From Candidatus Methylomirabilis oxygeniifera (GTDB taxonomy: Bacteria; Methylomirabilota; Methylomirabilia; Methylomirabilales; Methylomirabilaceae), in assembly GCA_000091165.1 (NCBI GenBank), contig FP565575.1:660001-692000 (forward strand): 32,000 bases of DNA. Reading direction: 5' to 3'. A program made the translations under genes and the position numbers. Positions within the stretch are counted from its first letter, which is position 1. Every line of letters starts with the position of its first letter. Below the pieces are notes generated by a model. That model was not told the DNA's origin. It saw nothing but the letters and a program-made list of their open reading frames with translations, and made no database searches. Positions 6,646 through 32,000 of the stretch are shown here, piece after piece.

Positions 6646-6708
6646 ATGGTGATACCTGATTACCAGTCAATCATGCTTCCCTTGCTCCGTTTCGCTGCCG
6701 ACGGATCT
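6646..6708 (+). pseudogene. mrr: N-terminal stub (~21 codons) of an Mrr-type restriction endonuclease gene
   Basis: MVIPDYQSIMLPLLRFAADGS matches the conserved start of Mrr_N winged-helix domains (M.IPDYQ..MLP.L...ADG) as I remember them. The rest of mrr is absent; the reading frame runs into tandem repeats and then an unrelated gene. Confidence 0.45.
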
Positions 6709-6754
6709 GTTACCTTTTCTTGGTCGTCACCTATCTTCGGTCACCTTTCTTTCG
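6709..6754 (+). repeat. Three tandem degenerate 14-15 bp repeats (GTTACCTTTTCTTG / GTCACCTATCTTCG / GTCACCTTTCTTTCG)
   Basis: Read directly from the sequence. The same GTYACCTTTC core recurs in both arms of the 7694-7755 hairpin and at 17181-17193. Confidence 0.6.
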
Positions 6755-6768
6755 AGGGAGACAGAATA

Positions 6769-7611
6769 ATGAGAAACGTCGTTCGAGCACTTGTCCTGCT
6801 GCTGGTCGCGCCGCTCCTCGCCGGCGCCGAGACGGATCAGTCGTTGACCGTGCTGCCGATGCGGAGCATGGAGCAACCCCTGGCGGCTCTGCCTCTCATT
6901 CCCCGCGCCATCACTCTGGAGCTTCCCGGCGCCACCATCCCCGTGAACCTGCAGGGCCGTGGACCGTTGCAGCTCGGCGCGTGGTTTGCTCGCGCGGATA
7001 ATCCGTCGATCGAGATGGGCGGCGTGATACTCAATCTGTGCGTCTGGTGGGAGATCCACCCGAAAAATGGGTACCCGAATGCCTCCGTGTACCAGTTTCG
7101 TCCAGCGAAGCTCGCAACGGACCTGCAGTGGCGGGACTACATCCTGCAGCTCGACATTCCGTCGATGGTCTGGGGCGGGACGGGAAGCGTCCATATCGTG
7201 CCCAAGGCCTATTTCGGCAACCTGCCGCCGAACAGCGAAAAATACGCCATCCAGCCGTCGGCCACGGTCGCGGTCGGACCGGAAGGAATGAAAGGCGATA
7301 TCCCCGCTCCGGATACGGCGACCATCCGGTTTCCCATGGTGGTGCTCGAATACCACAAGAGCACCGGCAAGGTTCAGTTGCGCGCCGGCAATCTCATCCT
7401 GGCCGAGGACCGGGGCGGCTACTGGTACAAGGACCAGCCGGGTAAATTCCAGATGGGGCCCTTCCGGGTGGACGTGAACGCGAAAACCGTGGACTACGGG
7501 GCCGCGGGGAAGTGGTATCCGGTCAAGCTCAAAGTGATCGTCGAGCCGGACATCCCGGGCCAGGCGATCCTCCACCCCCGCACGCTGGTAAGAACGAAGT
7601 ACTGGCAGTAG
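6769..7611 (+). CDS. Secreted hypothetical protein (280 aa)
   Basis: Internal ATG 6769 of ORF 6646-7611 is preceded by GAGGGAG. Sec-type signal MRNVVRALVLLLVAPLLAGAETDQ. Ordinary amino-acid composition, whereas the antisense ORF 6727-7668 is Arg-rich. No recognisable domain. Confidence 0.6.
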   Translation: MRNVVRALVLLLVAPLLAGAETDQSLTVLPMRSMEQPLAALPLIPRAITLELPGATIPVNLQGRGPLQLGAWFARADNPSIEMGGVILNLCVWWEIHPKNGYPNASVYQFRPAKLATDLQWRDYILQLDIPSMVWGGTGSVHIVPKAYFGNLPPNSEKYAIQPSATVAVGPEGMKGDIPAPDTATIRFPMVVLEYHKSTGKVQLRAGNLILAEDRGGYWYKDQPGKFQMGPFRVDVNAKTVDYGAAGKWYPVKLKVIVEPDIPGQAILHPRTLVRTKYWQ

Positions 7612-8041: not shown

Positions 8042-9889
8042 CCCATCTTCCGCAGTTCGAGCATGGCACACCAACAACATCACACAGTTATAACTCAGAT
8101 CAGGCCGTTTTCTGCACTACATCGTCAACGACCTTGGGCCGGTTGGGCAGCAAAATATTCATCCACTGGAGCAGCACCCTCAGAGCTTGTGAAGGGGTGG
8201 AGACCACTCGCAGCCTGAGGGTTTTGTCGTTCGCTGGCAGCAGGATATCCAAGGATCGCACCTCCCGCATCTCCTCCAGGAGCTGTCTCGGCGCAGCGCC
8301 GAGTCCTGGAGCCTTCATCCACTGCTGCAGGCTTCGCCACATGGCCAGGGCCAGAAAACAGACCAGGATATGGGCCCGGGTCCGGTCCTGTCGCTGATGG
8401 TAGATCGGCCGCATGCCGAGATCCGACTTTTCGATCCGGAAGACGTCTTCCACTTCGGTCAAGCGGTTTCCGTGACTGTCACGGTGAAGAGCGAGGCGGC
8501 CCGGCTGTTTCTCTCCAGCAGCCGTCGGATCCGACGTTCGGCCTTCTGCCGATCCCGGAGTCGGCCCTGCTCGGCCTGGGCTTTCAGGGTGTGCAGTTCG
8601 GCCTCCAGACGGGCCAGAAATCGGTCGAGGATGGCCGCCTCCTTGGCCTTCCGACCGTCGGACCGGCACAGCACAAAGATGTCCGCTCCGCCGTCAGGTG
8701 ACGCGCACGTTTTGACCTCGACGCCGGGCTGCACCTCCGCCCAGTCGTGGGCCAGCAGTTCGTGGTCAAACTTTCTGAGCATCGACTTCGGAGTGCCGAC
8801 GAGATAACGTGCGCCACGCTGCCGCAGACACGCCAGGTTCTCTTCGCTGACCATCCCCCGGTCCATGACCCAGATGCGCTCGGTCTGACCGTACTTATGC
8901 TCCATGGTCAGTGCCATGTCTTTGGTCGTGGTGACATCGGGACGATTGCCGTCGAAGACACTTCAAAGGCCAGAGGCAAGCCATCCCGGCTCGTCACCAG
9001 GCCGATACAGACCTGGGGGCAATCCGGGCGACTGTCGCGGCTGTAGCCCCTCCTGGCCTGCGGATTACCGCGCGCCAGACCTTCCCAGTAGGCGGAGGTG
9101 ATATCGTAAAACAGAAAGTCGAAGGTGGCCCCAAAGAGTGTGCCGTAGCGCTCCTGCAGGTGTTGGCACAGGGCGTCTTTATATGGCAACAGGAGACATC
9201 CAGGGCGCGGTAGAGGCGATCGTCGTTGACCCTGTCCGTGGGCACGCCCAGCAGATCCTCACACGCGGTCTTGGCATACCAGGAGTCGGCGATCTGCAGT
9301 TCCGACGATGGGGCGCAGAATCAGGCAATGGTGAGGAGGCAGGCCATGACGGACCACGGGATCGCTTCCCTGCCTTCGGCCATCTGGGCGTGACACCAGG
9401 TGGCCAAGCCGAGCCGGTGCCACAGGAGCAGCGCCAGATACACATCGCCGAAGTGTCGCAGCCGCTCGACGCTGACACGCGTAAGATCGATAGTCGCCCA
9501 TGCCGGCGGCTCTGCTACCTGTTCAAAGAGACTGCGGTGGGGGCTTCCCTGTAAGCAGGCGGCCGATGGCGTCCCGGCCGATCCGCTCCTCTCGGTCCAG
9601 TCCCGGCAGTTCCCCGATCGTGGCGACGATGCGCTGGCGAGGGCCTCGTGCCGTGCGAACGGATTCCATCAGCGACCAGTAGCCGTACGTTTCGCCGTCC
9701 ACGTGCTTGTCATGTCGCCGCAGGTACATAACCGACGTTATGCCCGATCTCTGCGCCCACTGCAAAAGGCTTTTCTGCACTACACGTGGTGTTCGGCATC
9801 CGGCGCTTCCGGATCCCGGAGTGACGCGGTCCGGCTGATCGATTGACTATCTTTTCGGTGCAGATCGAGCCGTTGCTGCGGAAGATGGG
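8042..9889 (-). mobile_element. IS1634-family (IS4 superfamily) insertion sequence, non-autonomous because the transposase is decayed
   Basis: Perfect 14-bp terminal inverted repeats: CCCATCTTCCGCAG at 8042-8055 and CTGCGGAAGATGGG at 9876-9889. They bracket 1848 bp containing the transposase fragments. No flanking target-site duplication detected (ctag vs ttaa). Confidence 0.75.
8100..9729 (-). pseudogene. IS1634-family transposase, disrupted
   Basis: Fragments in different frames:
- 9729-9523: MYLRRHDKHVDGETYGYWSLMESVRTARGPRQRIVATIGEL.
- A shifted frame gives FEQVAEPP...LLTIA, then an in-frame TGA, then FCAPSSELQIADSWY...DDRLYRALD.
- 9189-8908: LPYKDALCQHLQERYG...YDITSAYWEG...RGYSRDSRPDCPQV.
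- 8917-8459: DMALTMEHKYGQTERIWVMDRGM.
- 8669-8100: LTEVEDVFRIEKSDLGMRPIYHQRQDRTRAHILVCFLA.
That is at least four frameshifts, one nonsense codon and a probable internal deletion. Confidence 0.8.
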
Positions 9890-9901: not shown

Positions 9902-10288
9902 TCACCATTCCGTCCGCACGGGATACTGCGTGATGGCTGGATCGGGCGTCAGAATGGTCAGGCCGTGGGCGATGGCCTGGCAGATGAGCATCCGGTCGAA
10001 GGGGTCTTTGTGGTAATCGGGCAGCCTGGCAAGCTGCAGTACGGCAGCTTCCTCGAGCGACAGCGATCTGATTTCGTGGAGTGTGCGCTGTCTTGAGATG
10101 AATTGTCGGGGTGGCTCCGGTAACGGCAGACGGCCCAGGCGGTGCTTGATGACGATCTCCCAGGCGGACACAGCGCTCAGGTAGACCTCGTTGTCCGGGT
10201 CCGAAAAGAACTGACGCGCACTGGACGACAGATCGGGGCTATCGGCGATCAGCCACACGAACGTGCAGGTGTCGAGCAGCAGGTTCAC
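9902..10288 (-). CDS. vapC: PIN-domain ribonuclease toxin (VapC family)
   Basis: 128 aa. MNLLLDTCTFVWL (first acidic PIN residue), SAVSAWEIVIK and DPFDRMLICQAIAHGLTILTPD. The GTG start overlaps the antitoxin stop (GTGA). Confidence 0.85.
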   Translation of the reverse strand: MNLLLDTCTFVWLIADSPDLSSSARQFFSDPDNEVYLSAVSAWEIVIKHRLGRLPLPEPPRQFISRQRTLHEIRSLSLEEAAVLQLARLPDYHKDPFDRMLICQAIAHGLTILTPDPAITQYPVRTEW

Positions 10289-10530
10289 GCCTCACGGCCC
10301 TCAAAGGCAGCGATCAGCTCTTCCGGTAGCGGTTCGAAAAATGTCTTGGGAACCTGGAAAACCTTTTTCGCAAGTCCGATCGGGCGCGGCTTTTTGGGAA
10401 GCGTCGGCAGCGGGCGAATCTCAGCGATCGGGGTATTGCGTTTGCACAGCAGGATCGTCTCGCCCTCTTCAAGCTTTACCAGATACTCCGAGAGGTGAGT
10501 TTTGGCCTCGTGAATATTGATCTTGATCAT
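10285..10530 (-). CDS. Phd/YefM-type antitoxin
   Basis: 81 aa. MIKINIHEAKTHLSEYLVKLEEGETILLCKRNTPIAEIRPL matches the Phd/YefM N-terminal fold pattern. 4-nt overlap with vapC. Confidence 0.75.
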   Translation of the reverse strand: MIKINIHEAKTHLSEYLVKLEEGETILLCKRNTPIAEIRPLPTLPKKPRPIGLAKKVFQVPKTFFEPLPEELIAAFEGREA

Positions 10531-11671: not shown

Positions 11672-12421
11672 ATGATCAGCAGGGTGTCTGTGTTCATTGG
11701 TCTGGTGCTGGGTGTGGTCTTCATTGCGGGGTGCGAGAAACGCGAGATGCATGTCAAAACCGTTAATGTCAGCGCATCAACCATTTACTGCCGCTTCGAT
11801 CCATCCTGTGCGGTAAACAGTAACGACAGCACTACGACGCCTATTCCGATGCAGGCTGGGGGGACCGCGTTGCTCCACTCCCGCACCTTCGCGGGCAAAC
11901 CCGGGACGCCGGCGAGCGGTCTGTACGGCTACGAGTATCGGCTGGATCTCGAAAAGGCCAGCGAGACGATGGTGGAGGTCGAAGGTGTTGCGACGAAGCG
12001 CGTGCCTTGTTTGTTGACCATGTCGCTGGAGTTTGGTCCTATCGTCGATACCCTGGATTACGATGGTGATGGGAAGGCGGGAGATTTGATCTATATCGTC
12101 ACGAGCGGCGGGCCCGGCACGATTCGGCCTGGAGCGGTCCACCGGTGGCGCAACAAGCTCATCGTGAACTTCGACACCCCCGTCTGCGTCGGACCGTCCG
12201 GTGACCAGGGCCATAGCAGCTATCTCTTTGGCCTAGCCTCCACGCAGCCCCCGACGTCCGTCGAAGCCACGGTCAAGGAAACGGCCGGCTTAGCCGCGGC
12301 ACCGGTAAAATACGAGCAACTTCCACGGGCGGCAAAACTCGAACACCTGCCAAGCTACAACGTGCCGGTCCGCGGCCCTCAGATCAGTCCGACGCAGGAG
12401 TCGGAGCGTTCCGGAAGCTAG
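11672..12421 (+). CDS. Hypothetical lipoprotein
   Basis: 249 aa. Signal peptide with lipobox (VVFIAG-C). AGGAG lies upstream of the ATG. Ordinary composition, no recognised domain. Confidence 0.65.
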   Translation: MISRVSVFIGLVLGVVFIAGCEKREMHVKTVNVSASTIYCRFDPSCAVNSNDSTTTPIPMQAGGTALLHSRTFAGKPGTPASGLYGYEYRLDLEKASETMVEVEGVATKRVPCLLTMSLEFGPIVDTLDYDGDGKAGDLIYIVTSGGPGTIRPGAVHRWRNKLIVNFDTPVCVGPSGDQGHSSYLFGLASTQPPTSVEATVKETAGLAAAPVKYEQLPRAAKLEHLPSYNVPVRGPQISPTQESERSGS

Positions 12422-12442: not shown

Positions 12443-13150
12443 TTACATATTCCGTTCGTCGTGAGCCTGGTCGAAGGACTCACCACGAACGGAATATAGG
12501 GATTTCTGCGATACTACGCTGGCCCGCACTCGCAGACCTTCCAGTATGACCCAGAAGAGTTCACCGCGCGGCAGGTCACCTGTATCAGTATCGAACGCTG
12601 CGATCTGGCGATGATCGACACCAAGAGCAGAGCGCTCGAAGTCGTTCAAGCGCTGAGAGCATAGTTCGCCAGAGTGCAGCCGATCACCGTCCAACAGGTG
12701 TCTCAGGTTACAGCCCCATGTCGGCCGGATAGTCATGGCTGATGTCCCATGTTGCCACTTTCCCAGGTCCTGGCACATCCCGTGCAATTGCATCCGCGCC
12801 TGAGAGGGTCGGCCGACAGACACGACAGCCTGACGGGGAGGTACCGCGTGGCGCATGTCAAGACGGATGAAGTTGTTGCGAAGATGATCGAGGTAGGAGT
12901 TGCAAAAGGACAGCTTCCGATGACTCTTGGCAACGTCGTCGTCGGCTTTCTGTTTACCGGCCTTCCGCTCTACATCACCCATCATCGTAAGAATCAGGCG
13001 CGTTGAACTGCTGAGTGAAGCCGCACCGGCACCTCGCCTCTGCGCAAGGTTCGGGACAGCCCACCCGTAAACGGCGCACAGCAAGTCGGATTGCGTCGAA
13101 CTCGGGCTGCGGCGGATCTGAGATGATCGCTCGCTGCCGTTCCTCCGCAC
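12443..13150 (-). other. Doubtful 235-codon ORF; non-coding or a decayed gene relic
   Basis: Arg/Ser-rich with a GTG start. Its 3' end is encoded by the 12447-12497 hairpin. There are weak resemblances to an IS3-type integrase core (DL..AVYGWAV ... DRLHSGELCSQRLNDFERS vs YN..RLHSALGY.SP..FE), but these are not convincing. Confidence 0.2.
12447..12497. terminator. Long hairpin (19-bp stem with one mismatch, 13-nt loop) downstream of the lipoprotein gene
   Basis: ATATTCCGTTCGTCGTGAG cctggtcgaagga CTCACCACGAACGGAATAT. Starts 26 nt after stop 12421. There is no clear U-tract, so its terminator function is uncertain. Confidence 0.4.
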
Positions 13151-13156
13151 AGCAGT

Positions 13157-14032
13157 TCAGGACCTCCGTTTCTCTCTGGTGGAGGGCGTGATCACCATGG
13201 ACATGAACAACAGCGCAAGCAGCCCCAGCAGGGCTGGAGTGAAAAGAATCAAAAACCCTGGTCCCATTCGCCATTTTCCCGTAATCGGATCGTAGTCAAA
13301 GCAGCGAAAAATGGTGTTGTCTCCGGGGAGGGGATATGAGGGAATAAATTCCCCCTGCATTTCTCTCAATACCTCTGCCAGTCTGGAGGTTGCCTGAAAC
13401 CCTGCGAGTATTCTCAGGAGATACCCATTCCGATCAATGCCGGCGACCATCGCCGGATGATCGTATCCTTTGATCTCTTCGCGCCATTCAATGTGAAACC
13501 CCATGCTTTGGGTTAGTGCTGTGATCTCTTTCGTTACGCCAAATAGCCAGCGTTCCGGTTGGGGTAAGTCCAGGATACTCGCCACTCTCGTCATATCCTC
13601 TACAGTATCCAGAGGATCAAGACTGAGGACCAGCACGCGATATCCATCCACTCGAATGTTTTGCAGTTCGTTCCGAAGATACTGGAGATACGGGTAGCAA
13701 ATAGTCGGACATCGGGTATACACCATCGTGAGAAGAACGGGATGTGTCGTATAGATCTCAGAAAGGTGAATCTCCTTCTGAGCAGTCTGTACAACGATAT
13801 CCGGGATCTTGCGATAGACGTATCGATTCTCATCGGGCAATGCTGGTTGCGCAAAGGCGGACGCTGCCGGCAAAAGTATAATGGTGCAGGTGATGAACGC
13901 CGCCGAATACAGTCGACAGCGTGCTACGACGGAACAACGCGGAGCCTTCGGCAGGATAATAGTTGAGAGCAAGGCAAGCTGTCGAATAAGGTCGTTGACT
14001 CGAGGATTCACGATGACTTGGCAAGAGACCAT
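13157..14032 (-). CDS. SCO1/SenC-family thioredoxin-fold copper chaperone with a C-terminal TM anchor
   Basis: 291 aa. LTMVYTRCPTICYPYL (CxxxC Cu site) and a downstream His in GYDHPAMVAGIDRNG. C-terminal FRCFDYDPITGKWR followed by a TM helix, as in many SCO-family proteins. The start codon is uncertain (ATG 14032, or an internal GTG or TTG). Confidence 0.8.
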   Translation of the reverse strand: MVSCQVIVNPRVNDLIRQLALLSTIILPKAPRCSVVARCRLYSAAFITCTIILLPAASAFAQPALPDENRYVYRKIPDIVVQTAQKEIHLSEIYTTHPVLLTMVYTRCPTICYPYLQYLRNELQNIRVDGYRVLVLSLDPLDTVEDMTRVASILDLPQPERWLFGVTKEITALTQSMGFHIEWREEIKGYDHPAMVAGIDRNGYLLRILAGFQATSRLAEVLREMQGEFIPSYPLPGDNTIFRCFDYDPITGKWRMGPGFLILFTPALLGLLALLFMSMVITPSTREKRRS

Positions 14033-14157: not shown

Positions 14158-14793
14158 TTATGGGGCTGTACGAACAAACGAAGCGGCGCTGATTGTTCCC
14201 TCAGTAAAGCCAAGCCGGAAGTCGTAACGACGGCCTCCGAATGGAACTTGCAAGGCATCCCAATTCCGGAGAGTCCGTTGTTCCCTCGGCCTTCCTTCAG
14301 GAGTGGACTCTTTGACCGTATTACACGAGTCATCAACGATCGAAATAACCTTGAATATCTTTCCGTCTGAGACAAATCGAAATACAAGCGCGCCAATGGG
14401 TTGACCTGAATCGGTGAACTCAACGCCAATGGCTTCTTCCTTATTCTGGTCTCGCCCGATAAGCACAACATCTCTGGAGCCTTCCTCCAGGATCCGCACT
14501 CTGCCGTTTGGAACATTGGAGAAATATGCCGCAAGGCAGCCCTGTGCCCCTGGTGATTGTGCATCCATGAGAGTAGAAGGTTGGTTGGCGGGCTGCGCCG
14601 ATGGCGCAGTCACAGCAGGCCCTCTTGATGCCGACGTCGCAGCGGGGATCGGACGTGCATGTTTACGGTCGAACACTCCAAATGAATAAACAATGCTAAG
14701 CAGTCCGATGATAGCCGTTATGACTGTCGCTATCCCTGTCAGGATTCCCTGCGTGGAACTCCAGAAGGATTTTTTGTCGCTCATGTTGTTCAT
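14158..14793 (-). CDS. Hypothetical single-pass membrane protein
   Basis: 211 aa. N-terminal TM helix (ILTGIATVITAIIGLLSIVYSFGVF), a Pro/Ala/Ser-rich linker and a ~125-aa globular domain with two Cys. Lies between HCO subunit I and SCO on the same strand. Confidence 0.6.
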   Translation of the reverse strand: MNNMSDKKSFWSSTQGILTGIATVITAIIGLLSIVYSFGVFDRKHARPIPAATSASRGPAVTAPSAQPANQPSTLMDAQSPGAQGCLAAYFSNVPNGRVRILEEGSRDVVLIGRDQNKEEAIGVEFTDSGQPIGALVFRFVSDGKIFKVISIVDDSCNTVKESTPEGRPREQRTLRNWDALQVPFGGRRYDFRLGFTEGTISAASFVRTAP

Positions 14794-14917: not shown

Positions 14918-16342
14918 TCAACGGGAAAAGGCTTTGGCGCACCTCTGTGATGCGCCGAAAAAAAAGACGATGATCCCTAGCAAATACAACAGGGCGAAAA
15001 TCACGGCAGCTTTTGCCAGTGTTGTGCCAAGGGGCAGATCGGGAGGATAGAGATTGAATCTTCTGGGGATGGAGAACGTTCCCGAAAGATAAAACATGCT
15101 TACGAATCCCCAGCCCCCGAATAAGAGCAATGCAAAGACGCTCCTCGAAAGTCCGACAGAGAAGGGTGTTCCGGACACCTTCTCTGCGAACCAGACGACG
15201 AAGGCGAGATTGAAAAAGATCTGACCCAACAAGTTATAGGTATGAAAGTGGGCGGGAACCCACTGGGTGTTGTGCAGGACAAAATTGTTGACAATCGTTG
15301 CATCCAACACGGCCGCTACCCCGCCTATCGCCCAACCGAGCACCCCATAAAAATAGAGGAGAGAGGCCAGATTCCATTTCATCGAGTTTCGGTAGGTATA
15401 GGCGAGCACACTGAAGATCGTGACCACCGCCGCAGGGAGAGGAGCCAGGAACGAGGCGATCTGACCGATAAACTGAAATCCGGTCGGCTGGACAAAATCC
15501 ATGTACAGATGGTGAAAGTAGGCGAACATCACGATAAGAAAGGTCGCATTCCAGGATAATGCCACATACCATGCAGTCTTCCATTTTGCGCGACGGCCGA
15601 ATTCCGGATAGAGCTCGTACAGGACCGCCACCGCCAAATACAGCATCTCATTGACCAGCGTGTGTCCAAAAATAAACGTCAGATTCTTCATCAGGAGCGC
15701 ATCGTTTTTCATCCACCCCAGATGCTCCCCAAAGTACAGGGTTAGCAGGGTCACCCCGGCAAGCAGGCAGATAAAAATACCGATCAGCGTCGCGGTGAGA
15801 ACGACAATGAATGGTGGAACCTCCGGCTCTTTTTTCCCGCGAAGGTAGTGCCAGGCCAAGGCCTGGGATAATGGATATTTCCGCAAGATGCCGATCAGCA
15901 TGGACACGGTCCAGACCAGCCAACCTACCCCCAATACTGCGATGCTGACAAGAAAAAGCGGCGTCGCCCACTCTTCCCATGTTCTGTAAAAGGGAAGCGG
16001 ATAGAGAAAATACCACCCGGCGGCAAACTTCCCGATAAAGGTCGCAATGATCAGTAAGACCACACCGATCACCGTCAGGATATAGGCGACAATGTTTCCG
16101 ACCAACGGTGACCGAGTGTATTTATTCAACAGATAGTCGTTACTGGCCATGCCGATGACAAACCAGGTGCCCGCCATGCCGAGGCCATGGAGGGTGAGGA
16201 ATGAGAAGAAACGGTCCGCCGGCACGGTGATCACGCCTCCCTGGTTGGCACGCATCAAGATGCCGAGAAGGATCAGGATGGGAAAGAGGATAAGGCCGGT
16301 GTAGGTCCATACCGCGGTCATGCGGGAATATGTTTTCTCCAT
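14918..16342 (-). CDS. Heme-copper oxidase superfamily subunit I, B-family-like, lacking the cross-link Tyr (NO-reductase-type candidate)
   Basis: 474 aa, about 12 TM helices. All six canonical His ligands are present: H52 (LTLHG), H227 (IFGHTLVN), H277/H278 (AYFHHLY) and H365/H367 (WVPAHFHT). Asn231 occupies the position of the GHPxVY tyrosine. Confidence 0.9.
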   Translation of the reverse strand: MEKTYSRMTAVWTYTGLILFPILILLGILMRANQGGVITVPADRFFSFLTLHGLGMAGTWFVIGMASNDYLLNKYTRSPLVGNIVAYILTVIGVVLLIIATFIGKFAAGWYFLYPLPFYRTWEEWATPLFLVSIAVLGVGWLVWTVSMLIGILRKYPLSQALAWHYLRGKKEPEVPPFIVVLTATLIGIFICLLAGVTLLTLYFGEHLGWMKNDALLMKNLTFIFGHTLVNEMLYLAVAVLYELYPEFGRRAKWKTAWYVALSWNATFLIVMFAYFHHLYMDFVQPTGFQFIGQIASFLAPLPAAVVTIFSVLAYTYRNSMKWNLASLLYFYGVLGWAIGGVAAVLDATIVNNFVLHNTQWVPAHFHTYNLLGQIFFNLAFVVWFAEKVSGTPFSVGLSRSVFALLLFGGWGFVSMFYLSGTFSIPRRFNLYPPDLPLGTTLAKAAVIFALLYLLGIIVFFFGASQRCAKAFSR

Positions 16343-16354
16343 ATCGTCTTCTCC

Positions 16355-16912
16355 TTACCTGACCTCAAAACTCGTTCGCATAATAAAATGGGCAAGGCCG
16401 CAGTATTCCATGCACAGGACAGTATATATGCCGGGTTTTTCAAACCGAAAACGCAAGCGATTGACATAACCCGGCATCGCCTGAACCTGAGCGATGATGG
16501 TATGTTCCGGGTCGAAGATGCCGAATCCGTGATTCACATCCCGGCTGGTGACGCGGAACTCTACGAGGGCCCCTACGGGCAGAACAGTGCCGCCTGAAGC
16601 TTCGGCGGGAGCCTTTTCCTTGTCGAGCGATTCATCGGACAGGATAAAGGCAAACTGCTGTGCCGTCACGGCGATGATTTTTTCCGGCCGTTCTTGGACA
16701 AACAGCAGATAGGGAGAGCGGGGCAGGGTGAAAAAGAACACCACACCAAGGATGATAGCAAGCGCGAGAAACCAAAGACCCCGGTAGCGATTGACCTGTG
16801 CAGACGCAATGTCGGTCGCGTGTTTTGTGCTGGCAAACACCATCTGAAAGACCAGCACAAGCACGCCGGTCACAACCAGAAAGCTGATCAGAACAAGAAC
16901 CTGCTGCGTCAT
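16355..16912 (-). CDS. Heme-copper oxidase subunit II with a complete CuA centre
   Basis: 185 aa with two N-terminal TM helices. DVNH128GF ... C167MEYC171GLAH175FIM178 matches the canonical H...CxExCGxxHxxM. An AAGGAG-containing 12-nt gap separates it from subunit I. Confidence 0.85.
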   Translation of the reverse strand: MTQQVLVLISFLVVTGVLVLVFQMVFASTKHATDIASAQVNRYRGLWFLALAIILGVVFFFTLPRSPYLLFVQERPEKIIAVTAQQFAFILSDESLDKEKAPAEASGGTVLPVGALVEFRVTSRDVNHGFGIFDPEHTIIAQVQAMPGYVNRLRFRFEKPGIYTVLCMEYCGLAHFIMRTSFEVR

Positions 16913-17299: not shown

Positions 17300-18214
17300 T
17301 CAGGGATGATGGGAATCGTGAGGACGGGTGGAGACGCCGAGAAAGGTGAGGAAGGCGTTACAGATCGGTGAGCGTGAGCGGTGGCGGTGAGTGATGAGGT
17401 AGAAAGGTCTGGTCAGCTTGAGACCTGCGATAGGAATGGCGTAGAGTTCGCGGCAGTTGATGTCGCTTGCGACGGCGAGCCGCGAGATGATGGCGATACC
17501 TCCGCCTGCCTTGACCGCTTGCCGGATCGCCTCATTGCTGCCCATCTCCCCGATTATCTTGAAGGCGCCGATCGACAAATTACGACGCTCCAGGGCCCGT
17601 TCCAGCATCTTACGTGTTCCTGATCCGCGCTCCCGAATGAGAAACGGCTGACTCGGCAGTTCCTTTGCCCTGACGCTCTTCCGAGATGCCCATGGGTGTG
17701 CAGGCGGCACGACCAGGACCATCTCGTCTTCGGCAAATGTCTGATACTCGATCCTGCTGTCATCGAATTGTGCGCCTACGGCGCCGATCTCATAGGCGCC
17801 GTCGATCACGGCCTCGATAATCTCCTTTGAGTCTGAGACCTTGAGGACGATCGAGATGTCCGAATAGCGGGCCCTGAATGGTCCGATCAGCGGCGGGAGC
17901 AGATAGCCGCCCGGGATGCTGCTGGCGCCGAGTATCAGTTCTCCCTTCAGCCCTCCCTTGAACTCATCGAGCGCCTGTTGGGCTTCCTGGCGGAGCGTCA
18001 GGATCCGCCTGGCATAGCGATACAGCAAGTTGCCGGCCTTTGTTGGGGTGGCCCGATGTCCGAGGCGATCGAGGAGCCGGATGCCGACGTCCTTCTCGAG
18101 CTTCTTGATGTGGCCGCTGACCGTGGGCTGGGTCAGGTACATCGCGTCGGCCGCCTTCGAGAAGCTCCCCGATTCGACGATTCTGCAGAACAGTTCGAGG
18201 ACGTGGAGATCCAT
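17300..18214 (-). CDS. LysR-family transcriptional regulator
   Basis: Internal ATG 18214 gives MDLHVLELFCRIVESGSFSKAADAMYLTQPTVSGHIKKLEKDVGIRLLDR (HTH) plus a LysR substrate-binding domain. The 44 codons upstream in ORF 17300-18346 overlap the glycosyltransferase and are Arg/Ser-rich. Confidence 0.85.
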   Translation of the reverse strand: MDLHVLELFCRIVESGSFSKAADAMYLTQPTVSGHIKKLEKDVGIRLLDRLGHRATPTKAGNLLYRYARRILTLRQEAQQALDEFKGGLKGELILGASSIPGGYLLPPLIGPFRARYSDISIVLKVSDSKEIIEAVIDGAYEIGAVGAQFDDSRIEYQTFAEDEMVLVVPPAHPWASRKSVRAKELPSQPFLIRERGSGTRKMLERALERRNLSIGAFKIIGEMGSNEAIRQAVKAGGGIAIISRLAVASDINCRELYAIPIAGLKLTRPFYLITHRHRSRSPICNAFLTFLGVSTRPHDSHHP

Positions 18215-18224
18215 GATGTGTCTT

Positions 18225-19271
18225 CTACTCGCTGCGAGAGCAGGCGCCGATTGCTTCCTGATACAGTTGGAGATAGGCGCGAATCTCTCCTTCTCGGGAA
18301 AACTCCCGCTCGATCTTCTCCTTTCCGTTCTTCCCGAGCGCGTCACGCAGGTCCGGCTCCCTGATCAGTCGCTCGGCCTGCCGGGTGAACTCCGCCTCCG
18401 AACTGAAGAGCAGCCCGTCGATCCCGTCTTGTACCACTGATCGGTTGCCCTCGATGTCCGAGGCCAGGACCGCTCGTCCGCAACTCATCGCCTCCAGGAT
18501 ACTGTTGGCCATACCGCCTTCGGAGAGCGACGAGTTGATCACGACATCGACGGATCCGAGCATAGCGCAAAGCTGTTCGTGAGGGACCGACCCCAGATAG
18601 AAGGCCCAGGGGTAGTCCCGCAAGGTTTCCTGTAATCGGGCTCCTTCGGCAGCCTCAATAATCGGTCCCACGAAGACGGCCTTGATCTGAGGGTACTGTA
18701 TTCTGAGCGCGTCGAGCGGCTTCAGGCAGAAGGTAACGTTTTTCACGCGCCGGATACCTGCCGGGATGAGAAAGATCAGGTCATCGTGCGTCAGACCCAG
18801 GTGGCGTCGGAGATCGAGCGACGTCTCCCGACAGCGAACCGTCTGACCGATCACCCGGATTCGGTGTGCTATCTCGGGCAGTTCGCCCACGAGTTTGGCC
18901 CGTATGCAGTCATGAAAGACGACGATGCGCGTTGCCCGTCGAAGGAAATCTATGATCTCCGGTCTTCGATGCGGATCGAAGAGATCGGCATTGACATCGG
19001 TTCCGGTCACGGTAAGGATCGAGGGGATGCCCAGCCGGAATGCGGCGTCCGTTACGATATGCCCTGATGAGCTGATATGGAATCCATGGACTAGATCGGG
19101 AGTGAAGGCGGCCAGCGCCCGAAGAATCTCGTCCGGCGAGGGGCCATCCTCCAGGGACCAGACCCGCACGGTCACGCCGTGATCCCGCAATCCTGATTCG
19201 ATACGCTGAACTGTGATCGAATTGCCACGAACGGACGGAACATAGAAGGGAGTGACAATACCCAGTCGCAT
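18225..19271 (-). CDS. GT4-family (GT-B fold) glycosyltransferase
   Basis: Real start is MRLGIVTPFYVPSVRGNSITV at ATG 19271 (GAGGAG upstream), 8 nt after the asmA stop. C-terminal motif SLSEGGMANSILEAMSCGRAVLASDIEGNRSVVQDGIDGLLF. The upstream 249 codons of ORF 18225-20018 overlap asmA out of frame. Confidence 0.85.
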   Translation of the reverse strand: MRLGIVTPFYVPSVRGNSITVQRIESGLRDHGVTVRVWSLEDGPSPDEILRALAAFTPDLVHGFHISSSGHIVTDAAFRLGIPSILTVTGTDVNADLFDPHRRPEIIDFLRRATRIVVFHDCIRAKLVGELPEIAHRIRVIGQTVRCRETSLDLRRHLGLTHDDLIFLIPAGIRRVKNVTFCLKPLDALRIQYPQIKAVFVGPIIEAAEGARLQETLRDYPWAFYLGSVPHEQLCAMLGSVDVVINSSLSEGGMANSILEAMSCGRAVLASDIEGNRSVVQDGIDGLLFSSEAEFTRQAERLIREPDLRDALGKNGKEKIEREFSREGEIRAYLQLYQEAIGACSRSE

Positions 19272-28017: not shown

Positions 28018-28281
28018 ATGAAGGCCATCACATTGCGAAATCTTCCACCTGAGCTTTCCCGGATCATCCGCCGGAAGGCCGATGAGCAGCATGCGAGCAT
28101 CAACAGGGTTGTCATCAGTTTGTTGGAGAAAAGTGCGGGCGTCAGAACTAAGAAGAGCGAAAAAGTCCTCTACCACGATTTGGATGTGCTGGCCGGATCG
28201 TGGACGCGCGAAGAGGCTGCTGCCTTCGATAAGACCTTGACCAAGCAGCGTGCCCTTGATCCGGATCTGTGGCGGCGATGA
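28018..28281 (+). CDS. vapB: Ribbon-helix-helix (VapB/FitA-like) antitoxin
   Basis: 87 aa. MKAITLRNLPPELSRIIRRKADEQHASINRVVISLLEK is typical of RHH antitoxins. The stop overlaps the toxin ATG (ATGA, 28278-28281). Confidence 0.7.
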   Translation: MKAITLRNLPPELSRIIRRKADEQHASINRVVISLLEKSAGVRTKKSEKVLYHDLDVLAGSWTREEAAAFDKTLTKQRALDPDLWRR

Positions 28282-28679
28282 TGCGGGTGATGCTGGACAC
28301 CTCGGCCTACTCGGCGTTCATGCGAGGTCATCCGGAACTCGCGCATGCTCTCCAGCAAGCCGACGAGATCTATCTCAATGCCGTCATTGTAGGCGAACTG
28401 CTCGCGGGGTTTATGCGTGGAAAGTACAGGAAAAAGAATCAATTAGAGCTACAGCAGTTCCTGGCATCACCGCGGGTGAGTATCGTAGATATCAATGAGG
28501 AGACCGCCGAAAGGTACGCGGTGATCCTCGATGCGCTCTGGAAGGCAGGTACTCCCATACCCACGAACGACATCTGGATCGCGGCGAGCGCCATGCAGCA
28601 CGGGTGTCGTCTTCTTAGTGCGGATGCGCATTATCAAAAGGTCGGTCAAATTATCGTGGGACATTTTGAGGCGTCCTGA
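28278..28679 (+). CDS. vapC: PIN-domain toxin (VapC family)
   Basis: MMRVMLDTSAYSAFMRG..., VIVGELLAGF and IPTNDIWIAASAMQHGCRLLSADAHY. The track ORF starts at GTG 28269, but ATG 28278 gives the classic 4-nt overlap. Confidence 0.85.
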   Translation: MMRVMLDTSAYSAFMRGHPELAHALQQADEIYLNAVIVGELLAGFMRGKYRKKNQLELQQFLASPRVSIVDINEETAERYAVILDALWKAGTPIPTNDIWIAASAMQHGCRLLSADAHYQKVGQIIVGHFEAS

Positions 28680-28912: not shown

Positions 28913-29551
28913 GTGAATCCTGAATCGCTGCACTCCGAGCCGAAGCGTCGGCGCCAGATAATGGTGGCCTGTATTGCCGTGGTCGTTTCTCTCATTGTCG
29001 CAGTGGCGGCACTCGCGAACGCGCAGGCGGTCAGGAATCATCTGTGCTATGAGCACCGCATGAACATGTTTTGCACGATCGCCCAGATCGGCGAATCCGA
29101 CATGCGGGTATTCGCATGGTATCCTGAGGCGAGGCCATCCGGCCCGCCTCGTTCCAACCCAACCTCTCACCGGAACGGGGTGGCGCCTCCTAGAATTCTG
29201 TCCGAAATTCCTCCGTACGAAAAACGCTCATATGGCACCAGCTTCCCGAGCGGGACACGACAGTGGCTGTATTGGCAAGCGCGACTCACGGCTCGCGCCG
29301 CTCCCGGCAGCGTAATCAAGTTCCTGGCCCATTGGACGACGTATGGTGCGGGTGGTCGTTCCGTTGCGGGTGGTGTGGTAGAGGCTGCCTGGGGTGCCGA
29401 GGACCCGACGGTCATGATTATCGGCCCTGCCGACGACGATCCGATTCGTACCGTTGGCCAATTCCCCCCTGGCCACTATGAGATTGTTCTGAAGGTCTAC
29501 GGCAATCAACTGGCTGAATCGGAAGTTCGCGGCGGATTCGATGTTCATTGA
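28913..29551 (+). CDS. Hypothetical membrane-anchored or secreted protein
   Basis: 212 aa. GTG start with AAGGAA upstream. The alternative ATG 28961 gives MVACIAVVVSLIVAVAALANAQA (signal-like). No recognised domain. Confidence 0.45.
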   Translation: MNPESLHSEPKRRRQIMVACIAVVVSLIVAVAALANAQAVRNHLCYEHRMNMFCTIAQIGESDMRVFAWYPEARPSGPPRSNPTSHRNGVAPPRILSEIPPYEKRSYGTSFPSGTRQWLYWQARLTARAAPGSVIKFLAHWTTYGAGGRSVAGGVVEAAWGAEDPTVMIIGPADDDPIRTVGQFPPGHYEIVLKVYGNQLAESEVRGGFDVH

Positions 29552-29598: not shown

Positions 29599-29627
29599 TT
29601 GACATTCTGTAGAGGCGGACCTATAGT
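29599..29627 (+). promoter_or_regulatory. Near-consensus sigma70 promoter upstream of mtrA
   Basis: TTGACA (29599-29604), 17 nt spacer, TATAGT (29622-29627), about 64 nt upstream of ATG 29691. Confidence 0.5.
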
Positions 29628-29690
29628 CCATGCGCTACTCGAATTCAGAGTTGCGTTTCCAGTCGTACCCCATATCCCGAAGGTTTAAAG

Positions 29691-30692
29691 ATGAAGAAAC
29701 GTAACGCTGTCATCGCCCTGTTACCGTTATTGGCTGTTGCGCTCTTCTTCGGATGGGCCTGCAGTCGATTCAGCCCACCACCCTCCGGCCCTGAAACTCT
29801 TCATGCCCAAGAGACATCTGCTGCACGCGCGGTTGCGCCTCGGCCTCAGTGGACCGGTCCCCCACCGGGCGCCAAATACGTGGGGAGCGATTCCTGTCTG
29901 ACGTGTCATGAGGAGTCGACGCAGCGCTTCCATAAGACCATGATGGGGCGGATCATGTCCGTAAACCCGCGCACTCCCCAAGAGCAGCGAAACTGCGAGT
30001 CATGTCATGGTCCGGGAGGTCCGCACACCGATACGGAGGGCGGCGCCATCGGGACGTTGATGACCTTCAAGAAAGGCGCAGAGCCGGTCGAAGCGCAGAA
30101 TGCCACGTGTGTGAACGGCTGCCACGAAAAGGGCGAGCACACCTTCTGGAGGGGAAGCACCCACGAATCACGGGGGGTGGCGTGCGTATCATGTCACAAG
30201 GTGATGGGGTCGGTGTCCGACCGATACAATCTGACGAAGCCGACCGCGATCGAGGTCTGCTCGCAGTGCCACCAGACCCGACGAGCCCAGCTCCAACGCA
30301 GCTCCCACATGCCGCTGCGCGAGGGAAAGATCAGTTGCAGCGACTGCCACAACCCTCACGGGACTGCGACACAGGCTATGCTTCGCGAAGACTCCGTCAA
30401 TGAGAACTGCTACACGTGTCATGCCGAGAAACGGGGACCGTTTCTGTGGGAGCATGCGCCCGTCATTGAGAGCTGTACGAACTGCCATGAGCCGCACGGC
30501 TCCACCAATGCAAGGCTCCTGAAGGTCAGGATTCCGCGCCTCTGTCAGCAGTGTCACGTCGAGACCCGACACCCGACCAATCCATACGATCCGACAACCG
30601 GATCGAGGTTTGTCGTCAACCGAGGTTGTACCAACTGCCACCAGAAGATCCATGGATCTAACCATCCCTCAGGGTTCGCCTTCACGAACTGA
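29691..30692 (+). CDS. mtrA: Periplasmic decaheme c-type cytochrome, MtrA/DmsE/PioA family
   Basis: 333 aa. Nine CXXCH motifs plus one CX3CH (C140VNGCH). Long colinear matches to Shewanella MtrA as remembered: CSDCHNPHG, CYTCHAEKRGPFLWEHAPV, CHEPHGS, LCQQCH and CTNCHQKIHGSNHPSG. N-terminal signal peptide. Confidence 0.9.
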   Translation: MKKRNAVIALLPLLAVALFFGWACSRFSPPPSGPETLHAQETSAARAVAPRPQWTGPPPGAKYVGSDSCLTCHEESTQRFHKTMMGRIMSVNPRTPQEQRNCESCHGPGGPHTDTEGGAIGTLMTFKKGAEPVEAQNATCVNGCHEKGEHTFWRGSTHESRGVACVSCHKVMGSVSDRYNLTKPTAIEVCSQCHQTRRAQLQRSSHMPLREGKISCSDCHNPHGTATQAMLREDSVNENCYTCHAEKRGPFLWEHAPVIESCTNCHEPHGSTNARLLKVRIPRLCQQCHVETRHPTNPYDPTTGSRFVVNRGCTNCHQKIHGSNHPSGFAFTN

Positions 30693-30727
30693 GGTTTGCG
30701 ATCTGCAGCACACGGAGGAGGTGGGCC

Positions 30728-32000
30728 ATGGGCGCATTGCTTGGAATAAGACGATTTGGTCGCACGCTGCTGCTCGCCTTCGCCCTGCTGTCGGCGGCCG
30801 TCGCCTCAGGTTACGCCGAACAGCCCTCTCCGCAGGAGGCCATCCCTTCTTGGGTCAACTGGCTCAATACCGGGCTGCCCTTTGATTTTGAGCTGACCGG
30901 ATTGGATGTTGAGGGTGGCTATCGCGACATCGACGGCCGTCGGAGTTCGGCCAAGTTCCAGGAGTACCGTGTCCTTGAAGAGAGTCCCTTTTTGGATCAC
31001 CTTCGTCTCTCCCTGGAGACCAAAGATAAAAGGCGCTACATCGACTTCACCGCCATTGACAGCTTTAAGCAGGATCAGAGCTACCTGTTTCGACTGGGGC
31101 AGTACGGCGACTATGATCTGGAGATCTTCTGGGATCAGGTTCCGCATTTGTTGAGTACGACGGGACGGACCCTGTTCTCGACGACGCATAAAGACAGTAC
31201 CTCGTTTTTGACTCTGCCCGCTGGTGTTGCCTCAACAGTCCAGGGCGCGACCCCCGCGACAAGAGCCTCCATGTTGGCCGGTTTTCTTGCGAATGCGGCG
31301 CCGGTCGATCTGTCGTTTCTCACAAGTAAGGCAGGGTTTCGATTCAAGTACGCCTTGAGCGAGTCGCTCGGTATGGGGGTCCGTTACACCTATACGGAGA
31401 AAGACGGGACGATTCCGTTCGGCGCAGGCTTCAGCAGCCCGGGTGGCAACATCGTAGAGCTTCCCGCGCCTCTCTTTCATCGAACCCACCAGGTCGAGGT
31501 GAAAACCGAGTATGCGAAGCCAGGCTGGAATATCGGCCTAGGCTATGCCGCCTCGATCTTCGACCAGGGGATCAAGAATATCGTGTTCGACAATCCGCTC
31601 TCGGCGACCAACAGTCCGACCGCCTCGGCGAGCGGGCGAACGACCATGGACCCGAGTAACCATGCCCATAATGTATTTCTGTCTGGCGGCGTCTCTCTTC
31701 CTTTGCGCACCCGGATCACCGGCAAGTTTTCCTACGGTTGGCGGTTTCAGGACGCGACATTCGTTTCGCACACCATCAATCCGGCCCTGGCCGCCGATCC
31801 TCAGTTGGCTCTCCCCAGACGTGATCTCGACGGCGATATCAGGACGGCTCTGGTAACCGTCAACGCGACGAGCCGCCCGCTTGCCGCTCTGCCGCTGACA
31901 CTCAATGGCGGCTACCGCTTCTATGACTTCGATAACCGATCGTCTGAGATCGAGTTTGCCGCGCATACAGTCCGGGATACGTCGCTCACAGCCGAGACCC
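30728..32000 (+). CDS. mtrB: MtrB/PioB-family decaheme-associated outer-membrane beta-barrel. The first 424 codons are present; the gene continues past the window end.
   Basis: Not in the ORF track because it runs off the edge. GGAGGAGG lies upstream of ATG 30728. Hand translation gives MGALLGIRRFGRTLLLAFALLSAAVASGYAEQ (signal), then GYRDIDGRRSSAKFQEYRVLEESPFLDHLRLSLETKDKRRYIDFTAIDSFKQDQSYLFRLGQYGDYDLEIFWDQVPH, with alternating beta-strand patterns typical of MtrB/PioB. No listed + ORF shares this frame. Confidence 0.85.
   Translation, partial: MGALLGIRRFGRTLLLAFALLSAAVASGYAEQPSPQEAIPSWVNWLNTGLPFDFELTGLDVEGGYRDIDGRRSSAKFQEYRVLEESPFLDHLRLSLETKDKRRYIDFTAIDSFKQDQSYLFRLGQYGDYDLEIFWDQVPHLLSTTGRTLFSTTHKDSTSFLTLPAGVASTVQGATPATRASMLAGFLANAAPVDLSFLTSKAGFRFKYALSESLGMGVRYTYTEKDGTIPFGAGFSSPGGNIVELPAPLFHRTHQVEVKTEYAKPGWNIGLGYAASIFDQGIKNIVFDNPLSATNSPTASASGRTTMDPSNHAHNVFLSGGVSLPLRTRITGKFSYGWRFQDATFVSHTINPALAADPQLALPRRDLDGDIRTALVTVNATSRPLAALPLTLNGGYRFYDFDNRSSEIEFAAHTVRDTSLTAET

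Follow-up and report, generated by a model that had tools for sequence, protein, structure and literature searches.

A 32,000-nucleotide (nt) stretch of DNA from Candidatus Methylomirabilis oxyfera, hereafter the window, ends in two genes, mtrA and mtrB, whose products are by homology an outer-membrane porin-cytochrome conduit of the MtrAB/MtoAB/PioAB family. The host belongs to the phylum Methylomirabilota, formerly NC10. By following these genes beyond the window, we found that mtrAB begins an eight-gene cytochrome cluster in M. oxyfera and that the conduit is conserved and probably functional. What the window holds of this conserved respiratory cluster, whose genes all point the same way, is the promoter and the first two genes. 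We consider it likely that this conserved cluster wires the conduit to the quinone pool, and we infer the wiring from gene content and conserved linkage. The connection would run through a c7-type cytochrome and three inner-membrane modules, so that a chain of roughly 50 haems would link the quinone pool, via the periplasm, to the cell surface.

The mtrAB conduit

The features at the end of the window that make up the start of the cluster are the following.

29599-29627, + strand: sigma-70-type promoter upstream of mtrA, TTGACA-17-TATAGT, matching 11 of 12 consensus positions
29647-29657, + strand: leader element AGAGTYGCGTT in the mtrA 5' untranslated region, an invariant block in a five-genome alignment
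29691-30692, + strand: mtrA-like decahaem c-type cytochrome, 333 amino acids (aa), identical to CBE67880.1
30714-30721, + strand: Shine-Dalgarno sequence for mtrB, GGAGGAGG, 6 nt before the ATG at 30728, read from the sequence
30728-32000 and continuing past the window end, + strand: mtrB/pioB-like outer-membrane beta-barrel, first 424 of 799 codons, identical to CBE67881.1

We compared the mtrA product with MtrA of Shewanella baltica (PDB 6r2q_A). The two proteins aligned over residues 64-329 (E = 1e-72) with 48% identity (125 of 258 aligned positions), and all ten haem sites were in register. On TIGR03508, the NCBIfam model for DmsE-family decahaem cytochromes, the protein scored 267.9 bits against a cut-off of 192.2. 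An earlier reading of the window from its letters alone (the sequence-only reading) had described a 333-aa decahaem cytochrome colinear with Shewanella MtrA. These matches bear it out with one refinement, since a motif count gave nine CXXCH sites and one CX3CH site (CVNGCH, residue 140) that falls on haem site 3 of MtrA in the alignment. The protein would be a decahaem cytochrome only if this site binds haem, as we assumed. Across 30 aligned homologues the cysteines and histidines of the haem sites were invariant.

The CX3CH variant is common to a Methylomirabilis-type clade. It occupied site 3 in 18 of the 120 homologues listed, nearly all of them within the 30 best matches, and site 3 is CXXCH in Shewanella and in more distant relatives. 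Residues 140-145 (window 30108-30125), which read CVNGCH here, were CVDGCH, CINGCH, CMGACH or CLGACH in relatives.

A hydrophobic segment at MtrA residues 6-24, read from the sequence, is a putative export signal. Directly after the core of this signal a cysteine is kept among MtrA homologues (residues 21-25, window 29751-29765), and in the alignment the Rokubacteria relatives carry the same cysteine in a canonical lipobox, L-[AST]-[GS]-C. On this ground these MtrA proteins are probably lipoproteins, and a proline-rich linker of some 40 residues may serve as their tether. Shewanella MtrA is, to our knowledge, not a lipoprotein. An AlphaFold2 model of MtrA, computed with no haems from a 30-sequence alignment, had a mean pLDDT of 52.9, too low to be used in a search by fold.

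The barrel gene follows mtrA after a gap of 35 nt. The Pfam model MtrB_PioB (PF11854, cut-off 23) assigned 184 bits to the fragment in the window and 382 bits to the full-length protein. On TIGR03509 the 424-aa fragment scored 144 bits, below the cut-off of 240, because the protein is cut short at the window edge; the full length of 799 aa scored 307.6 bits (cut-off 240.05). MtrB also matched the barrel of the Shewanella complex (PDB 6r2q_B, E = 5e-19). Its N-terminus, MGALLGIRRFGRTLLLAFALLSAAVASGYAEQ, reads as a signal peptide, and its C-terminus (...RYQF) closes on an aromatic residue as in outer-membrane barrels. Its only cysteines are residues 635 and 649, and a CXXC motif is absent. The MtrB/PioB-like barrel that the sequence-only reading had placed behind GGAGGAGG, with its signal peptide, is therefore present, and both MtrB/PioB models recognize its full length. 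As in the MtrAB/MtoAB/PioAB family, MtrA threaded through the MtrB barrel would conduct electrons across the outer membrane.

The cluster downstream of mtrB

The sequence-only reading had proposed to extend the contig past position 32,000. We did so on the European Nucleotide Archive (ENA) contig Methylomirabilis_oxyfera_contig_159 (locus L001), which is 100% identical to the window over the shared 12,310 nt; the exact MtrA protein was also found in run SRR023516. Six further genes follow mtrB on the same strand.

After mtrB, same strand: Rieske protein, 151 aa, with the cluster-binding motifs CTHLEC...CACH
After the Rieske gene, same strand: cytochrome b, 362 aa, of the fused b6 and subunit-IV type, with a PEWY motif
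After the cytochrome b gene, same strand: nonahaem cytochrome, 422-434 aa, with a signal sequence and a C-terminal membrane helix
After the nonahaem gene, same strand: c7-type trihaem cytochrome, 127 aa, periplasmic, TIGR04257 63.3 bits (cut-off 40)
After the c7 gene, same strand: CbcL/MtoC/MtrH-like protein, 715 aa, with 13 CXXCH motifs and a formate-dehydrogenase-gamma/Ni_hydr_CYTB (FdnI-type) b domain
After the CbcL-like gene, same strand: NapC/NirT-type cytochrome, 731 aa in orthologues, with an N-terminal membrane anchor

Four of the cluster proteins had exact matches among deposited sequences, namely MtrA (CBE67880.1), MtrB (CBE67881.1), cytochrome b (CBE67883.1) and the CbcL-like protein (CBE67886.1). 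The N-terminal half of cytochrome b was closest to b6 (E = 3e-65), and the protein lacks a cysteine at the haem ci-binding position of b6. By its position, the nonahaem cytochrome would take the place of cytochrome c1. The best PDB matches of the c7 protein were the c7 domains of Geobacter GSU1996 (E = 6e-35). Orthologues of the NapC/NirT-type cytochrome (87-94% identical) have 16 CXXCH motifs, and at least 12 are present in the available part of the M. oxyfera protein. The cluster totals about 50 c-type haem sites. In close relatives it ends with a TPR protein, after which the genes are unrelated.

No gene for a surface decahaem lipoprotein of the MtrC/OmcA type was found within 10 kb upstream of mtrA or downstream of mtrB. 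The other multihaem proteins of the cluster either have an inner-membrane anchor or are small and periplasmic. The sequence-only reading had taken the lack of such a gene between mtrA and mtrB as the mark of a PioAB/MtoAB-like layout. That criterion was mis-stated, as in Shewanella such a gene is never found there: mtrC lies upstream of mtrA, and in mtrDEF mtrF lies downstream of the barrel gene (PMC8805035). The conclusion itself stands, since such a gene is absent from both flanks.

Conservation within Methylomirabilis

The gene order mtrA-mtrB-Rieske-cytochrome b-nonahaem-c7-CbcL-like-TPR, with or without the NapC/NirT-type gene after the CbcL-like one, is kept in M. lanthanidiphila (GCA_902196205.1), GCA_019912285.1 and GCA_028869615.1. 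These three genomes also share the left flank (UvrD-GatCAB). The same cluster order was found in locus L015 and in GCA_003104975.1 (L007), where mtrAB is present as two tandem pairs. In this region of L007 (1304-9841) the tandem pairs are preceded by two proteins of about 800 aa built from DUF1573/ASH/Ig-like repeats, and genes for NrfD and a cytochrome c also lie ahead of them. Possibly these large repeat proteins act as partners of the conduit at the surface.

A further locus, L011 (GCA_035561835.1), is labelled 'Patescibacteria group bacterium'. Its cytochrome cluster is 86-94% identical to that of M. oxyfera at the protein level, and it supplies MtrA and MtrB to the same 90% clusters. The most likely explanation is that L011 is a Methylomirabilis contig that was mis-binned or mislabelled.

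The ratio of nonsynonymous to synonymous substitution rates (dN/dS) was 0.06-0.22 over four genes, mtrA, mtrB and those of cytochrome b and the nonahaem cytochrome. Between M. oxyfera and the orthologues it was 0.08-0.21 for mtrA, 0.08-0.14 for mtrB and 0.06-0.10 for cytochrome b. These low values indicate that the cluster genes are maintained and not decaying. They bear directly on whether mtrAB might be a decaying or non-functional relic, as the deposited name of CBE67880.1, 'putative deca-heme c-type cytochrome (fragment)', could suggest. The protein has only nine canonical CXXCH motifs, and toxin-antitoxin pairs and insertion-sequence remnants lie nearby. Yet the mtrA open reading frame (ORF) is intact and aligns to MtrA over all ten haem sites, the CX3CH variant is kept in the clade, and both the promoter and the leader element are conserved. 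We regard a relic as extremely improbable and rejected it, as the selection and conservation data contradict it.

A second possibility is that mtrAB is of the DmsEF type and supplies electrons to a molybdoenzyme outside the cell, for instance a reductase of DMSO or iodate. The best NCBIfam model of MtrA is named 'DmsE family', and the NCBI name of CBE67880.1 is 'DmsE family decaheme c-type cytochrome'. That model covers the whole MtrA/DmsE group, however, and is no marker of DMSO respiration. The partly seen NrfD gene and the cytochrome c gene before the mtrAB pairs of L007 also point this way, as both genes follow a molybdopterin oxidoreductase in another NC10 locus, L013. Against this, the L013 enzyme has an NrfD membrane anchor, which makes it an inner-membrane complex, and in L007 the two large repeat proteins part NrfD from mtrAB. 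The sequence-only reading had named downstream dmsAB genes as a sign of such a system. In M. oxyfera no dmsAB genes were found up to 10 kb to the left or right of mtrAB, and a molybdopterin enzyme was likewise absent from the 10-kb surroundings in M. lanthanidiphila and GCA_028869615.1. We rejected the DmsEFAB assignment, which has very little probability left.

Promoters, leader element and possible transcript units

The promoter-like site TTGACA-17-TATAGT before mtrA, which the sequence-only reading had called near-consensus, is indeed the best such site in the region. It occurred once in the window, with 0.00 matches expected from shuffled sequences. In five genomes CTTGACA was invariant and the -10 element was TATAGT, TAAGGT or TAGGGT at the same spacing, while the surrounding sequence had diverged. 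The leader element AGAGTYGCGTT was found once per locus, only before the mtrA copy that precedes the Rieske cluster, and at no other place in these loci. It may act as an operator or as an RNA element. An Rfam scan of the window returned no RNA family.

Intergenic gaps in the cluster range from 5 to 129 nt, except for 273 nt before the c7 gene. This gap contains a second TTGACA-17-TATAGT (L001 16403-16431, + strand), whose hexamers and spacing are both identical to those of the mtrA promoter. The identical site lies at the same place before the c7 gene in four further genomes (L007, L008, L011 and L013). The second promoter probably drives a unit of the c7, CbcL-like and NapC/NirT-type genes.

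Linkage of mtrAB to the Rieske/cytochrome b core in other lineages

MtrA is a very common protein: 7,967 of the 8,000 candidates scored matched it at E <= 1e-20, and most were named 'DmsE family'. We sampled its gene neighbourhoods in a forward test of 80 mtrA loci, drawn from one genome per bacterial or archaeal species and without M. oxyfera itself. Many contigs were short, so the frequencies given here are those of samples and are lower bounds, not censuses. Nearly all of the 80 loci had an MtrB gene downstream of mtrA. A Rieske/cytochrome b pair lay within 10 kb in at least 12-14 of them, and at least 10 of those also had a homologue of the nonahaem gene. The linked loci came from Methylomirabilota, Acidobacteriota, Elusimicrobia and Gemmatimonadota, and their gene orders differ. 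In the metagenome locus L009 the whole set is found upstream of mtrAB.

In a reverse test, we listed 24 metagenome loci of at least 12 kb with a nonahaem gene. Rieske and cytochrome b genes adjoined it in all 24, which shows that the nonahaem protein is a regular subunit of the Rieske/cytochrome b complex. A CbcL-like b domain was present in at least 11 of the 24.

Several observations weigh against a functional decahaem conduit wired into this cluster. The CX3CH at haem site 3 of MtrA is atypical, and haem binding there is assumed. The interval from mtrB to the Rieske gene contains hairpins that resemble terminators, and mtrAB may therefore be a separate transcript. In L013 the core from Rieske to NapC/NirT follows a molybdoenzyme/NrfD/cytochrome c cluster and not mtrAB, which implies that mtrAB is a module joined to a core of wider conservation. 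Finally, only four of the 24 long nonahaem loci listed had MtrA and MtrB, so the coupling to MtrAB is recurrent but facultative.

The last three of these observations, together with the modest count in the forward test, are what would be expected if mtrAB were an independent operon. Its place beside the Rieske/cytochrome b genes would then be an accident of gene order specific to the genus, with no functional chain. Both linkage counts are minimum values from many short contigs, however. The left flank and the gene order are constant across the genus, and at least four phyla show the linkage, in differing orders, as expected for functional coupling and not for inheritance alone. We consider an independent operon unlikely, and retain the reading in which the conduit and the downstream complexes would form one chain.

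Comparison with known systems

Among known layouts the cluster most resembles the mtoAB-mtoC-mtoD type, into which a Rieske/cytochrome b module has been set, and the conduit is Mto-like. Genes of the MtoC/CbcL type share a cluster with mtoAB and mtoD in Dechloromonas aromatica RCB as well as in Gallionella capsiferriformans ES-2; the variant MtoAB-CymA-MtoD occurs in Sideroxydans lithotrophicus ES-1 (PMC6295460 for the first two). As in ES-2 and RCB, the decahaem gene is followed by the barrel gene and there is no MtrC-type gene. The cluster also shares with the MtoAB-MtoC type a fusion of multihaem and b-type domains and a small periplasmic cytochrome, going by the architecture described in PMC6295460. 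It differs in the inserted Rieske/cytochrome b/nonahaem complex, in the extra NapC/NirT-type cytochrome with its 16 haem motifs, and in its small carrier, a c7 trihaem cytochrome in place of the cytochrome c shuttle MtoD. Further differences are the CX3CH site of MtrA and its probable lipobox. The hosts differ too: those of Mto are Fe(II)-oxidizing Betaproteobacteria, whereas this one is an NC10 methanotroph, in which Fe(II) oxidation is putative.

A similar combination was described in the Zixibacteria genome RBG-1 (Castelle et al. 2013, PMC3903129), where one cluster holds genes for MtrA and MtrB, for cytochromes with a single haem or with several, and for a PetAB complex. The lack of surface cytochromes led the authors to favour Fe(II) oxidation (PMC3903129). 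Compared by description, both clusters combine MtrAB with cytochrome b/Rieske proteins and several multihaem cytochromes of the periplasm or inner membrane and have no homologue of an extracellular cytochrome. RBG-1 belongs to a different phylum, and its cluster adds the monohaem cytochromes.

The resemblance to Shewanella MtrCAB (6R2Q) is in the conduit, where MtrA is 48% identical with ten colinear haem sites and MtrB is a homologue at E = 5e-19. The Methylomirabilis cluster differs from it by having no MtrC/OmcA gene and a longer MtrB (799 compared with 695 aa) that has no CXXC. The inner-membrane partners differ as well, Shewanella using the small tetrahaem CymA (PMC8805035) and Methylomirabilis encoding CbcL-like, Rieske/cytochrome b and large NapC/NirT-type proteins.

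In Geobacter, the porin-like ExtI lies beside the Rieske protein ExtO, the cytochrome b ExtP and cytochromes with 10 and 12 haems (PMC2825233; PMC5877670). The Methylomirabilis cytochrome b scored 216 bits on the ExtP model of the G. sulfurreducens cluster extHIJKLMNOPQS (GSU2930-2940), below the cut-off of 290. ExtI is unrelated to MtrB, and the ext cluster has been linked to the reduction of selenite and tellurite.

PioABC of Rhodopseudomonas palustris TIE-1 has the same A-then-B order and likewise no surface cytochrome. The Methylomirabilis cluster is unlike it in that no high-potential iron-sulfur protein (HiPIP, PioC) domain was found among the genes called within 10 kb. PioA has a long N-terminal extension, whereas the 333-aa MtrA has about 40 residues from the signal peptide to the first haem. 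Electron transfer into the cell from Fe(II) or cathodes depends on PioA and PioB, and MtoAB has been proposed to serve iron oxidation (PMC8805035). In a sequence-similarity network, Rokubacteria relatives were reported to be first neighbours of PioA and PioB (PMC10654088).

The architecture is thus already known, the family is very widespread, and two of the genes are already annotated publicly; the NCBI name of CBE67881.1 is 'MtrB/PioB family decaheme-associated outer membrane protein'. As a concept, the finding is not new. In the open literature we found no paper that discusses mtrAB in Methylomirabilis, and the comparative-genomics paper on the genus does not contain the words bc1, Rieske, multiheme, decaheme or porin.

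Direction of electron flow

We lean, weakly and from a nearly even balance, towards uptake, with Fe(II) outside the cell, reduced minerals or a partner as the source of electrons. This is because the cluster has no surface cytochrome gene, because MtrB lacks a CXXC, which at the N-terminus marks the MtrB of metal-reducing Gammaproteobacteria, and because the MtrC-less PioAB and MtoAB systems point to uptake. It is also because Methylomirabilis respires nitrite and NO-derived O2 at high potential. Uptake would feed this high-potential respiration linked to nitrite, NO and O2.

In the opposite direction, quinol would be oxidized via the CbcL-like, NapC/NirT-like and Rieske/cytochrome b modules, and c7 and MtrAB would pass the electrons to Fe(III), Mn(IV), humics or shuttles. 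The chain would then be an auxiliary electron sink for methane oxidation, and a methanotroph has electrons to spare. CbcL-type, NapC/NirT-type and c7 cytochromes form the classic outward chain of Geobacter. The inner-membrane and periplasmic parts of the cluster match those components in CbcL architecture and c7 fold family, and the NapC/NirT anchor is as in CymA; by this analogy, they would argue against uptake. Geobacter furthermore links a porin-like protein with Rieske/cytochrome b and 10- and 12-haem cytochromes (PMC2825233; PMC5877670). In Methylococcales metagenome-assembled genomes, MtoA/MtrB genes were tabulated among those for extracellular electron transfer, with Fe(III)/Mn(IV) minerals and organic compounds as acceptors (PMC7840105).

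Outward transfer is nevertheless at odds with the absence of an MtrC/OmcA-type surface cytochrome gene from the cluster and with an MtrB without CXXC. The MtrC-less relatives speak against it as well, PioAB being required for inward transfer and MtoAB being proposed for iron oxidation (PMC8805035). On balance, we view outward transfer as possible but doubtful, and keep the weak preference for uptake. Methane activation, moreover, needs nitrite-derived O2, so metals cannot replace nitrite.

Given the known lifestyle of the organism, we infer that exchange with metals or electrodes may be coupled to its N-oxide respiration. A stronger version, in which all Methylomirabilis keep the chain of about 50 haems and take electrons directly from Fe(II) minerals or from Methanoperedens archaea, seems improbable to us. 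Methylomirabilis is often co-enriched with these archaea.

Other genes in the window

Upstream of mtrA, the 212-aa ORF at 28913-29551 had no family match in Pfam and NCBIfam scans, and the motif scan confirmed the earlier statement that it has no haem motif. We rejected it as a part of the system: among the loci fetched it was present only in those of M. oxyfera, and other genes take its place elsewhere. Directly upstream of this ORF and mtrA lies one of two PIN-domain toxin-antitoxin pairs. These pairs and broken, overlapping ORFs that look like transposase remnants were found at 8100-9800, 9902-10530 (- strand) and 28018-28679 (+ strand), and are signs of local genome plasticity.

The sequence-only reading had placed nitrate, nitrite and NO respiration in the same window. 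We could not confirm that claim: the ORFs scanned, which were not an exhaustive set, included no nitrate or nitrite reductase. Besides the toxin-antitoxin pairs and apparent transposase remnants, they included an SbcC fragment, GatCAB, UvrD and AsmA genes, a cytochrome with two c-type domains, and the following group of genes.

14921-16912, with 13160-14032 and 17300-18346, - strand: very divergent haem-copper oxidase pair, with SCO1-like protein and LysR regulator genes next to it

Subunit I of the haem-copper pair (474 aa) had a best PDB match of E = 1e-7 and scored 77 bits on the CtaD model (cut-off 671), and subunit II has a CuA-type domain. The haem-copper superfamily includes NO reductases, and the pair could encode an unusual oxidase or an NO reductase.

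Several long ORFs matched neither Pfam nor NCBIfam models. They lie at 120-2603 (+), 6646-7611 (+), 11672-12421 (+), 12443-13150 (-) and 14158-14793 (-), and one of them encodes 596 aa. Those at 6646-7611 and 11672-12421 have an N-terminal hydrophobic stretch, a putative signal peptide.

Implications for Methylomirabilis

Methylomirabilis is the model for nitrite-dependent 'intra-aerobic' methane oxidation and is generally treated as nitrite-only. Its conserved cytochrome cluster, which is under purifying selection and is predicted to move electrons over the outer membrane and to or from the quinone pool, suggests that it may also exchange them with minerals of iron or manganese, with humic substances, with electrodes or with partner cells. 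If direct uptake were true, a supposedly obligate nitrite-dependent methanotroph would also be a lithotroph or an electron-accepting syntrophic partner. Electron exchange with the surroundings would change the view of how the methane, nitrogen and iron cycles are linked in freshwater sediments and bioreactors. The finding is of moderate interest in that it gives extracellular electron exchange in a model methanotroph a concrete and testable basis.

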